From assembly GCA_017934475.1 (NCBI GenBank), contig JAGBJN010000006.1, positions 129,185-193,184 on the forward strand: DNA of 64,000 nucleotides, written 5' to 3'. A program made the position numbers and the translations under genes. The first letter of the stretch is position 1, and every line of letters starts with the position of its first letter. The notes under the pieces were generated by a model, which saw only the letters and a program-made list of their open reading frames with translations, did no database searches and had not been told where the DNA came from. Source of the DNA: Clostridia bacterium. GTDB taxonomy: Bacteria; Bacillota; Clostridia; TANB77; CAG-508. Of the stretch, positions 3,400 to 5,020 are shown piece after piece.

Positions 3400-3573
3400 T
3401 TTTTACCTCCTGTTTTTTCAGAAGGTATAAAAAATAAGCTGAACTGTTTCATTCAACTTAACATGTTAGATATTATTTCAATAACTATATTTTTGTTTCA
3501 ATTTTGATTAAGGAAATTAAAGATCAATGTCGAATATTATTAACGAATATAAATTTTATATGAATGAAATCTC

Positions 3574-3612
3574 TTCGAGGGGGGTTACTATTATCAAAGT
3601 TTTGTGCAAAAA
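3574..3612. repeat. Copy 1 of a roughly 38-bp direct repeat (..GGGGTTACTATTATCAAAGTTTTGTGCAAAAAGAGATA..).
   Basis: It matches 4921-4958 with 1-2 mismatches, read directly from the sequence. Confidence 0.7.
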
Positions 3613-4487
3613 GAGATAGGAGAAAAACTATATATGTAAAAAGTTCCTATCTTGCTGTATTTCAAGCTTTTTAACACTTTTACACTTATATCTTTAATAA
3701 CAACTTATATTACTTATTTATTAAAATGTCTTATATTTGATCCTGGAGCTTCAATTATTTAAGCTTATTCCAGGATTTTATTTTTTTCTTATATAATTTC
3801 ATTTCCAAAATATTTTTTTATTATAATTTTTAAATTTATTTTATAAAAAAAATTCAAAAATCTCCAAATCCTTTATTTTCAGCATTTTTACGATTTTTAC
3901 AGATAACAAACTATATGTCCTTTTTATAAAAACGCCTTAAAATCGATTCTCGTGCGTCGTTTTTTTAGCCGTTTTTCAGCAAATTTCAAAAACATGCAAA
4001 ATATCAATATTTTGATGATTTGTATATAAAATTACATCAAATAAATATTATATTAAATCAAATCTTAAACATGTAACTTGTTAGGTTTAATATAAAAATG
4101 TCTTAAAATTGATTTTGAAGCTTTTGATTTATAAAATAATATTAGTAGTTTAATAATTAAATCTGATCTGATAAATTTATAAAATTATCTATTATAATAT
4201 GTAAAAATTTATTTTTTTAGACAAATGTTCGGTTTTAAAATTATAAATCGAACATTTAAAATTTAACATTGCACAAATTTAAAATCTGAATTTTATAAAT
4301 TAAAAATTTCAAATTATAATTTTTATTTTTATAATTTTGCTTTATAAAAATTTTTTAAAATATTTTTGTAGAATCTTCTGGAATAAGTTTTAAATTTTTT
4401 TATTTAATTATTAAATCTCTAATCTTTTAAAGTCGCCCCTCTCTCCTACTTTCAGGTTATCTAATTTAAAATTCTGATAATATAAAA

Positions 4488-4612
4488 AAGTGCTGACCAC
4501 CTTAAATTAGCCATGCCTATACTATTTTCGCTCGCCACTACTTATAGTAATTATTGGTCATAACAAATATTAAGGTGGTCAGGTGGAAACCACAGCACAT
4601 TCAGCCTTTTTT
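4488..4612 (+). ncRNA. Candidate small structured RNA, or a long-hairpin terminator element.
   Basis: This is a local GC-richer patch. A perfect 12-bp inverted repeat ctgaccacctta / taaggtggtcag is extended by gtgctg / cagcac. It encloses a loop of about 60 nt plus a small gtgg-aaa-ccac hairpin, and is followed by a T-run (cctttttta). A second hairpin plus T-run lies at about 4662-4692. Confidence 0.3.
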
Positions 4613-4920
4613 ACTTAGGTGTATCCAATATTGATACTTTTGGTGCTACAGGCTACCTAAGCGCAAAACTTCCACTATTTTGCTTTTTTGAAAATTAAGA
4701 TGCGCATATTATACACACCTCCTAACAATCTTTCCATATTACAGGAAAGATTTTATGTGATAAAGAATATACTTTATCAATTGAATTATATCATAAGTTA
4801 AGCAATATTGCAACGTATTAAGTTTTTTAAATTTTGAAGTTCCTAAAAATAGAACATTTTCTTATACTTTCAATTTTTTTATCAAATGGGATTTACTTTT
4901 TTAAGTAACCTTAAATTTTG

Positions 4921-4958
4921 AAGGGGTACTATTATCAAAGTTTTGTGCAAAAAGAGAT
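4921..4958. repeat. Copy 2 of the roughly 38-bp direct repeat (GGGGTACTATTATCAAAGTTTTGTGCAAAAAGAGATA).
   Basis: It matches 3574-3612. The two copies flank about 1.3 kb of AT-rich DNA that has no ORF. Confidence 0.7.
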
Positions 4959-5020
4959 ATCTCAAAAAAATAGTCTGTAAATTAAAAGAGAAGATAAAAT
5001 ATCCTCTCTTTTGTTGTGAT

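Follow-up and report, generated by a model that had tools for sequence, protein, structure and literature searches.

The window analysed here is a 64,000-nt stretch of contig JAGBJN010000006.1 from a bacterium of the class Clostridia, and the region of interest, positions 3400–5020 of that window, is a gene-free, AT-rich segment next to a parA gene in which two copies of a direct repeat lie 1,341 bp apart. We consider it probable that these repeats are duplicated recombination sites and that they bound a 1,341-bp unit without a recombinase of its own, inserted beside an integrative and conjugative element (ICE). The evidence comes from the repeats themselves, from relatives with and without the unit, and from the distribution of the palindromic site from which the repeats are derived.

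The repeat pair and the unit between its copies

A preliminary description, made from the sequence alone, had reported a pair of 38-bp direct repeats in this region. The pair is real, although its coordinates were off by 1–8 bases: the exact 33-mer TACTATTATCAAAGTTTTGTGCAAAAAGAGATA occurs at 3586–3618 and 4927–4959, and no such pair was obtained in 100 shuffles. With the preceding G-run included, 37 of 38 positions are identical (3582–3618 versus 4923–4959, spacing 1341), and a weaker similarity between the copies extends to 59 nt. We looked for a third copy of the 33-mer across the window and found none. The absence of genes was likewise borne out, since no open reading frame (ORF) of more than 47 aa overlaps 3400–5020 and none of more than 37 aa lies between the repeats; the 1,341-bp unit thus has no recombinase of its own, nor does it contain integration or conjugation modules. 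The region was also said to lie upstream of parA, which holds in that parA is on the minus strand and downstream of it, but the gene is split by a frameshift. The features at the two junctions are as follows.

3400–3585, minus strand: leader of parA, with which the ICE begins; the end next to the site, GGGGGGTTACTATTA, provides the degenerate left arm of repeat copy 1
3586–3618, plus strand: repeat copy 1, a hybrid site with a degenerate left arm ending in GGTTACTATTA, the centre TCAAAG at 3594–3599 and the right arm TTTTGTGCAA at 3600–3609, followed by AAAGAGATA
3619–4470, no strand: AT-rich non-coding arm, delimited by colinear homology
4927–4959, plus strand: repeat copy 2, a hybrid site with a left arm ending in GGGGTACTATTA, the centre TCAAAG at 4935–4940 and the right arm at 4941–4950
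4979–5020, minus strand: intrinsic terminator of the methyltransferase gene, just before copy 2
5021–5785, minus strand: class I SAM methyltransferase gene, generic and not rsmG

Copy 1 is the junction between the ICE on the left and the 1.3-kb unit on the right, whereas copy 2 joins the unit to the methyltransferase side. Around 4950–4959, copy 2 remains identical to the starts of arms for 11 nt beyond the right half-site (AAAAAGAGATA), even though no arm is present on the methyltransferase side; this match may be the stump of a deleted chromosomal arm.

A comparison with close relatives, suggested in the preliminary description, showed that the unit can be present or missing. Five contigs (L001–L005) were chosen because they encode the identical methyltransferase. 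The filled arrangement is found in the independent ENA k141 assemblies L001 and L003, the latter with 0 mismatches over 2,441 bases. In L004, a Logan contig from another sample, the repeat is present once, with the left flank of copy 1 on one side and the right flank of copy 2 on the other; this contig has 1 SNP relative to the window in 1,826 shared bases, retains parA and lacks exactly the 1,341-bp unit. The Logan contigs L002 and L005 end within the repeat, exactly at the k-mer of the expected branch. A search of metagenome contigs for the junction of this strain gave no match, and no circle junction of the unit was found. One of the earlier suggestions, a decayed mobile-element scar bounded by att-like repeats, is essentially borne out by these data, given that the repeats are copies of a site common to many integrated elements (see below) and that L004 does without the unit.

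An assembly artefact, or a chance duplication within plain intergenic DNA, is hardly credible as the source of the repeat pair. Metagenome assemblies can indeed be mis-joined at repeats, and AT-rich sequence yields many weak ones; however, L001 and L003 are independently assembled and identically filled, the 33 nt are exact where no such pair is expected, and the core recurs in well over 100 contigs of other organisms.

A palindromic site and the replication terminus

Each repeat in the window is a hybrid in which only the centre TCAAAG and the right arm are well formed. The full palindrome reads TTGCACAAAA-TCAAAG-TTTTGTGCAA; what the first reading had missed is that the repeat is half of a palindromic site, apparently one at the replication terminus. 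The search for further copies that it proposed showed that the core recurs in 17 GTDB species and at least 120 metagenome contigs. In the 17 species, all of them metagenome-assembled genomes (MAGs) of uncultured gut Clostridia/Bacillota, a 26-mer of the repeat occurs once per genome. When the window and the GTDB loci are read in + orientation, the left flank varies (rho, parAB, Fic, P-type ATPase and others) and the right flank is conserved. Several GTDB loci possess a further copy to the left, GCACAAAATCAAAGTTTTGTGC, which is a perfect palindrome around TCAAAG. Genes to the left of the palindrome at these loci are on the plus strand and those to the right on the minus strand, and the GC skew flips at the palindrome.

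Metagenomes were scanned for the perfect 22-mer palindrome only, with one match per contig. The palindrome is present in at least 120 contigs from gut metagenomes, among which 98 left flanks can be distinguished, and all counts out of 120 given below rest on these contigs. The consensus over the 98 flanks, AACATTGCACAAAA-TCAAAG-TTTTGTGCAAwAAG, consists of inverted arms of 10–11 bp flanking a 6-bp centre, as in single-recombinase dif modules; tyrosine-recombinase cores usually have this layout. The mean GC skew is about +0.2 in all 1-kb bins up to 14 kb left of the site and about -0.2 up to 10 kb right of it, and the sign changes at the site in 51 of the 56 listed contigs that extend for 1 kb or more to either side of it. 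Within the window the skew is negative throughout and almost all genes are on the minus strand, as expected of the replichore to the right of the site. A dif of the Bacillus or E. coli type was detected neither in the window nor in the 850 kb surrounding these sites. Two other readings of the core were discarded: hexamer spacings do not fit a promoter, and integron/attC-like cassettes do not fit simple 10-6-10 cores in direct orientation with long arms. A replication origin region, which rsmG, noc and parAB would have marked, was also rejected, as the methyltransferase is a generic class I enzyme, parAB belongs to the ICE and DnaA boxes are missing.

The site is linked to a gene for a recombinase.

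15720–16694, plus strand: chromosomal Xer-family tyrosine recombinase, 324 aa from the ATG at 15720

This gene, one of the few on the plus strand within a 60-kb minus-strand run, lies 10.7 kb from copy 2. Its orthologues are located 0.5–7 kb from the full palindrome, on either side, in 14 listed contigs; these site-linked xer genes are 67–76% identical to the window gene and 35–42% identical to the integrases of the mobile elements described below. In two contigs, L065 (xer at +551) and L085 (+1001), the AT-rich arm to the right of the site leads straight into the xer promoter. The 324-aa protein is therefore a candidate for the recombinase that acts on the site. Together, the palindromic layout, the skew switch and the linked xer gene incline us, somewhat beyond an even balance, to regard the palindrome as a dif-type site of uncultured low-GC gut Clostridia, which would presumably serve chromosome dimer resolution. 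A search of a library of papers found no report of such a site in Clostridia.

Several observations weigh against this assignment or against the reading of the repeats. The recombinase belongs to the Xer superfamily and falls outside the curated equivalogs, with NCBIfam scores of 240 for XerC (cut-off 335), 228 for XerD (cut-off 330) and 164 for XerS (cut-off 267). The skew flip is confounded with the convergent orientation of the genes. A scan for the perfect 22-mer fixes neither the occupancy of the site nor its single-copy status per genome, and the search for a canonical dif was confined to contigs. Among the listed contigs, no unoccupied site is followed by ordinary chromosome, apart from array ends and the cases where an arm leads to xer, which is odd for a purely parasitic arm. 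In the genome of the window itself the intact palindrome is not seen within the window, because the ICE runs past its left end. Finally, the sole empty-site contig, L004, is a 1.9-kb k=31 contig that crosses a 33-bp repeat; a graph artefact is nevertheless unlikely here, since L002 and L005 break where a branch is expected and L004 shows no branch.

Several elements carry Xer-like integrases of their own, so the site may be only the attB of a family of integrase-bearing elements in the terminus, with the true dif elsewhere and the unit being a cis-mobilizable element (CIME) served by element integrases. We regard this as unlikely, if by no means far-fetched, and it concerns the dif assignment only, leaving the reading of the repeats as duplicated recombination sites unchanged. 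At no fewer than 12 loci, and also in a prophage, an arm has a pair of element integrases and a conserved 93–111-aa protein as its immediate neighbours, which together with the recombinase scores and the restriction of the dif search to contigs speaks for it. The skew switch, however, is seen across 65 host backgrounds, which is more than a shared attB needs, and the flanks contain no canonical dif within 850 kb. The site-linked xer is of a chromosomal type distinct from the element integrases, and in L065 and L085 an arm connects it with the site. In addition, a recombinase is altogether missing from many of the arrayed units. The dif-type reading of the palindrome thus remains the one we favour.

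The arm and the elements that carry it

To the right of the full palindrome there is almost always an AT-rich, non-coding arm of 0.5–0.9 kb, colinear between loci. The sequence 3619 to about 4470 of the window is colinear with it (+33 to about +780) in 93 of the 120 listed contigs at 68–88% identity, for example in L063 (87.5%), and also with the region upstream of parA in other ICE copies at 73–78%. The preliminary description correctly noted the AT-rich composition and the GC-rich segment within it, the GC content being 13–15% at 4001–4400 and 32–36% at 4401–4700. The conserved elements of the arm are listed below.

3619–3660, minus strand: site-proximal hairpin, GATAGGA.../...TCCTATC then CTCTTTTT, terminator-like and abutting the recombination site
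3730–3749, plus strand: direct motif, copy 1
3900–3990: most conserved block, 90–100% over 16 arm types
3936–3955, plus strand: direct motif, copy 2, in the most conserved block, with the palindromic centre AATCGATT
4102–4121, plus strand: direct motif, copy 3

The most conserved block reads ..ACAACAAryTATATG..ATAAAAACGCCTTAAAATCGATTCTCGTGCGTCGyTTTTTTAGCC.. and is not coding, as no reading frame is kept between arm types. The direct motif CTTAwAwTyGATyyTsrwGC has 3 matches in the window, all of them in the arm, compared with 0.02 expected, and its copies are candidate protein-binding sites. The site-proximal hairpin has counterparts at this place in other arm types, with different stem sequences (covariation by eye). 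Folded one by one, these hairpins have a mean minimum free energy (MFE) of -15.0 versus -9.9 for shuffles. RNAalifold gave no consensus for this hairpin, since the alignment does not bring the stems into register; an automatic terminator criterion, too crude for this purpose, picked out 6 of 42 sequences versus 25 of 840 shuffles. Distally, the arm of the window ends in the motif CCCCTCTCTCCTAC. All arms have at this end a purine-rich motif directed at the site (in the window 4430–4450, minus strand, GTAGGAGAGAGGGGCGAC), which may bear a loose resemblance to the orienting sequences of SpoIIIE/FtsK, e.g., GAGAAGGG. Of the palindromes with 9-bp arms that had been reported, one lies within the arm (AAATGTTCG/CGAACATTT at 4223–4231/4249–4257) and the other at 4727–4735/4744–4752; both were found again. 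These features suggest that the arm is an accessory or binding region.

The arms are not tied to particular hosts. Among 108 usable loci we distinguished 65 clusters of host flanks and 40 arm types; hosts with at least three contigs have 4–6 arm types each, and arm types with at least three contigs occur in 2–10 different hosts each. This shuffling indicates that the arms are mobile rather than fixed chromosomal sequence.

The position of the arm near parA raises the question of whether the AT-rich region is the centromere or iteron origin of a plasmid-like element with parAB, its motifs being ParB or Rep sites and the 38-mers belonging to the same control region. Such an origin would account for three direct 20-bp motifs with a palindromic centre upstream of parA, for the order arm, site, parA that is kept in other ICE copies, and for the circular form of the element, which would place the arm just upstream of parA. 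Yet the same arm and motifs occur in 93 of the 120 listed contigs, mostly without parAB, and also beside a phage integrase and the chromosomal xer; the site separates the arm from parA, L004 has parA without the arm, and parA is frameshifted in every copy. The region contains no parS and no DnaA-box cluster, in line with the absence of both noted earlier, and nothing similar is present in 72,556 plasmids; the only similarity to plasmids or phages was a 69-nt AT-rich match, dismissed as due to chance. A parAB iteron or partition region, one of the first suggestions for this DNA, is thus very improbable.

The genes of the ICE nearest to copy 1 are as follows.

2574–3399, minus strand: parA, with a +1 frameshift at about 3321–3327; Walker-A ORF 3235–3399 and 259-aa ORF 2574–3353
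1676–2617, minus strand: ParB_N protein

The gene order of this ICE in its other copies (L023–L028) is parA, parB, a 224-aa protein, SpaA adhesin, RadC, DUF3991/Toprim, NikA/MobC and relaxase, and in the window the element extends leftwards beyond the edge. In ICE copies parA always adjoins the hybrid site. The assembly collection has 74 blocks with the identical 259-aa parA product; among the contigs listed, the upstream sequence differs. The +1 shift lies at CUU-C-GGA (minus strand, 3321–3327), where CGG is a rare codon in this genome of 25% GC, and the split is identical in all copies (L001, L004, L023–L028 and a remnant in L069). The frameshifted parA is either a pseudogene that has spread with a successful ICE or a case of programmed +1 frameshift.

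Other elements use the site in the same way. In L021, L026, L127 and others, as well as in an IMG/VR prophage, the order is integrase(s), a 93–111-aa protein, arm and site. The prophage (L029, positions 6853–8610; IMGVR_UViG_3300045988_165745) consists of lysis genes, a 331-aa integrase, a 93-aa protein, a 430-bp arm and a hybrid site, from which it follows that temperate phages use the same site as the ICE. The 93–111-aa protein always stands between the element integrase(s) and the arm (L021, L026, L048, L049, L076, L090, L097, L119 and L127); it matched no Pfam or NCBIfam family, shares the motif VEL..GQVE.ILRALE.YGY and is a candidate directionality or activation factor. An assignment of the integrase pair and the small protein to a Tn554-like tnpABC module was rejected, as neither sizes nor site fit and the proteins are Xer-like.

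Tandem units separated by hybrid sites comprise conjugative elements, the prophage, gene cassettes and miniatures without ORFs; many units in such arrays have no recombinase, and some have cargo genes only or nothing. All 15 arrays have the intact palindrome at their left end; the sites that follow to its right are hybrids, with TCAAAG and the right arm preserved but with unrelated left arms. Two loci illustrate how small a unit can become. L035 possesses, between the intact palindrome and a hybrid site, an ORF-less 653-bp unit made up of the arm only (+0 to +653), which is a second, smaller miniature element of the same kind as the 1.3-kb unit. L069 has the order site, arm, parA' truncated after about 30 codons, leader and left arm, and this order indicates an ICE reduced by internal deletion, a route by which such units can arise. 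L027 (2253–4970) likewise speaks for accretion in tandem and for decay at this locus: ahead of its copy of the ICE stand a duplicated leader of parA, a stub of parA' and another site, which has diverged.

Beyond its arm, the 1,341-bp unit contains a structured element encoded on the minus strand.

4785–4813, minus strand: promoter-like sequence, TTGCAA-17-TATAAT with a TG extension, 10/12 matches
4482–4778, minus strand: candidate structured RNA of about 300 nt

The predicted RNA starts with three 5' hairpins, two of them clean, and has in addition a Shine-Dalgarno sequence and a 10-codon ORF (MRILIFKKAK, 4675–4707), a long hairpin (4612–4488) and U6 (4482–4487). The long hairpin had been described before and is confirmed, with a perfect 13-bp inverted repeat CTGACCACCTTAA/TTAAGGTGGTCAG at 4493–4505 and 4570–4582 plus the GTGCTG/CAGCAC extension. 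The T-run said to end it exists, but on the plus strand it begins only 12 nt past the hairpin, whereas a minus-strand T6 directly abuts it, so that a terminator fits the minus strand better. A second hairpin with T-run is also present, GCAAAA at 4663–4668 pairing with TTTTGC at 4678–4683 before T6, but it is weak (6 bp, 2 GC pairs). The 305-nt fold has an MFE of -88.4 kcal/mol versus -62.5 for shuffles (z = -5.55).

Three Rfam runs over 3400–5020, a check proposed earlier, gave no family at threshold, the best scores being 17.9 bits for RAGATH-25 (threshold 49) and 17.2 for ssNA-helicase (threshold 41.5), with E of about 1; this ssNA-helicase match and a T-box-like stretch, AAGGTGGTCAGCAC, were set aside as not significant. 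The sole Rfam match in the window is a bacterial class A RNase P RNA at 23939–24289 (minus strand, 267.7 bits). Searches for homologues of the structured element in 149 related loci and in viral contigs, phages and plasmids gave none, and its predicted structure hence has no covariation support.

The small RNA gene suggested in the preliminary description is thus backed by a promoter, a stable fold and a terminator, all on the minus strand, but not by an Rfam family or a homologue. One could go further and regard 4482–4813 (minus strand) as a functional small RNA or cis-regulatory leader gene that is the cargo of a miniature element, the repeats merely bounding it. The strong promoter match with its extended -10, the stable fold, the hairpin with U6 and the Shine-Dalgarno sequence with a 10-codon ORF inside a hairpin, as in attenuator leaders, all fit. 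We nevertheless think this improbable: the searches for families and homologues came back empty, no gene follows the terminator, as would befit a leader left from a deleted gene, and L004 shows that the lineage does without the element. It should be noted that the structured element sits where autonomous elements keep their genes. In our view it is probably either what remains of a leader of the parent element or a small RNA that this element carried as cargo; the promoter and terminator suggest that an RNA may be made.

A model of accretion and its relation to known systems

The duplicated-site reading suggests the following scenario. A circular element would carry a mimic of the site, with TCAAAG at its centre between a poor left and a good right arm, and next to it a 0.5–0.9-kb AT-rich arm. 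Crossover in the centre would insert the element, rebuilding an intact palindrome on the chromosome-left side, available to the next element, and leaving a hybrid site on the other side. Repeated rounds would produce tandem arrays of one polarity, and integration of circles into the palindrome indeed predicts the intact-leftmost polarity seen in all 15 arrays. From left to right, the window would then comprise the ICE (..parB, parA, leader), hybrid site 1, the 1,341-bp unit, hybrid site 2 and the methyltransferase side. The unit itself would consist of the arm (3619–4470) plus, on the minus strand (4813–4482), an orphan promoter with its structured RNA and terminator; a larger element, shortened by internal deletion or reduced to a miniature, is its most likely source. 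The unit would be immobile alone, but recombination between the direct repeats could remove it, as in L004. Its loss would leave the empty junction ..GGGGGGTTACTATTATCAAAGTTTTGTGCAAAAAGAGATATCTC.., and the junction of its circle would read ..GAAGGGGTACTATTATCAAAGTTTTGTGCAAAAAGAGATAGGAG... The model also places an arm and then the intact palindrome AACATTGCACAAAATCAAAGTTTTGTGCAA at the far end of the ICE, outside the window.

Among known systems, the closest parallels are the integrative mobile elements exploiting Xer (IMEX), i.e., CTX-phi, VGJ-phi, TLC-phi and the gonococcal genetic island, and LME-1 of Legionella, which likewise integrate at a terminus site and form tandem arrays. There, too, the element site mimics the chromosomal one with one poor arm, so that one junction is intact and the other modified, and the modified junction stabilises the insert; in the LME-1/XerL system, for instance, dif is intact upstream of the insert and modified downstream of it. 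Also as in IMEX, many units here lack a recombinase, the 1,341-bp unit among them, and these elements may use the host Xer. In contrast to IMEX and LME-1, the elements described here add a conserved non-coding arm of 0.5–0.9 kb and their site is unrelated in sequence to the 28-bp dif; unlike IMEX, some members (ICE-associated modules and the prophage) encode Xer-like integrase(s) and a small partner protein. The unit lacks a recombinase and is bounded by hybrid sites, and the arrays of this family show one intact palindrome with modified sites to its right; membership of the unit in IMEX depends on the site being dif and on host Xer acting on it.

The site and its recombinase can be compared with XerS/difSL of streptococci and lactococci, XerH/difH of Helicobacter and Campylobacter, and XerL/dif of Legionellales, which share a palindrome with AAAA/TTTT arms, a short centre, the skew switch and a linked recombinase. 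The xerS gene is adjacent to difSL, and in both difSL and difH the arms end in AAAA and begin with TTTT. Compared with XerS/difSL, the recombinase here scores below the XerS, XerC and XerD cut-offs, and up to about 0.9 kb of arm lies between the site and the xer promoter. The linkage is also looser (0.5–7 kb on either side, 10.7 kb in the window), apparently because insertions push gene and site apart.

Recombinase-less, att-bounded units in tandem with an autonomous element are also represented by the CIME beside ICESt1/ICESt3 in Streptococcus thermophilus and by the pseudo-SCC units in arrays of the staphylococcal cassette chromosome (SCC) at rlmH. They arise by decay or deletion, and the recombinase of a neighbour can move or remove them. 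As in a CIME, direct att copies bound the 1,341-bp unit, and copy 1 is at the same time the junction of the ICE at the parA leader; derivation by deletion, as in L069, is a plausible origin for it. CIME and pseudo-SCC target the 3' ends of genes (fda and rlmH) and have no long conserved arm, whereas the target here is a palindromic terminus site. By analogy, the unit would work like a recombinase-less IMEX or a CIME.

A possible model for the role of the arm is provided by cer and psi, where an Xer core is likewise flanked on one side only by non-coding DNA; in cer this accessory region of about 180–280 bp is needed for the reaction. The arm described here exceeds that length three- to fourfold, and the outcome differs as well, since cer serves to resolve multimers of plasmids whereas the elements here integrate. 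We identified no arm binder of the PepA, ArgR or ArcA type.

IMEX- or CIME-like behaviour is already known; what appears to be new is the palindromic terminus site, the linked xer and the long conserved arm copied by every inserted element. More tentatively than the dif-type assignment itself, we propose that the 38-mer is the half-site of an undescribed dimer-resolution module of uncultured low-GC gut Clostridia (a dif-type palindrome, an arm of about 0.5–0.9 kb and xer), which is exploited by ICEs, a prophage, cassettes and ORF-less miniatures that mimic the half-site and the arm. In Legionella, a new dif/Xer system was found by following the attachment site of a mobile element, and the same logic is applied here to abundant uncultured gut Clostridia. 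This matters because dif sites are hard to find in very AT-rich Firmicutes; indeed, genome-wide dif prediction failed for C. perfringens and C. beijerinckii. For the window, the gene-free 1.6 kb finds an explanation as an array of junctions and not as a regulatory region of parAB. If the proposal is true, the arm would represent a new kind of accessory region for Xer-type recombination, and it becomes a testable question why a long conserved non-coding arm goes with every copy of the site. The site would also provide a terminus marker for MAG assembly and for estimates of replication rate, and it would define a hotspot in the human gut where ICEs, prophages and cargo cassettes gather and are swapped between species.

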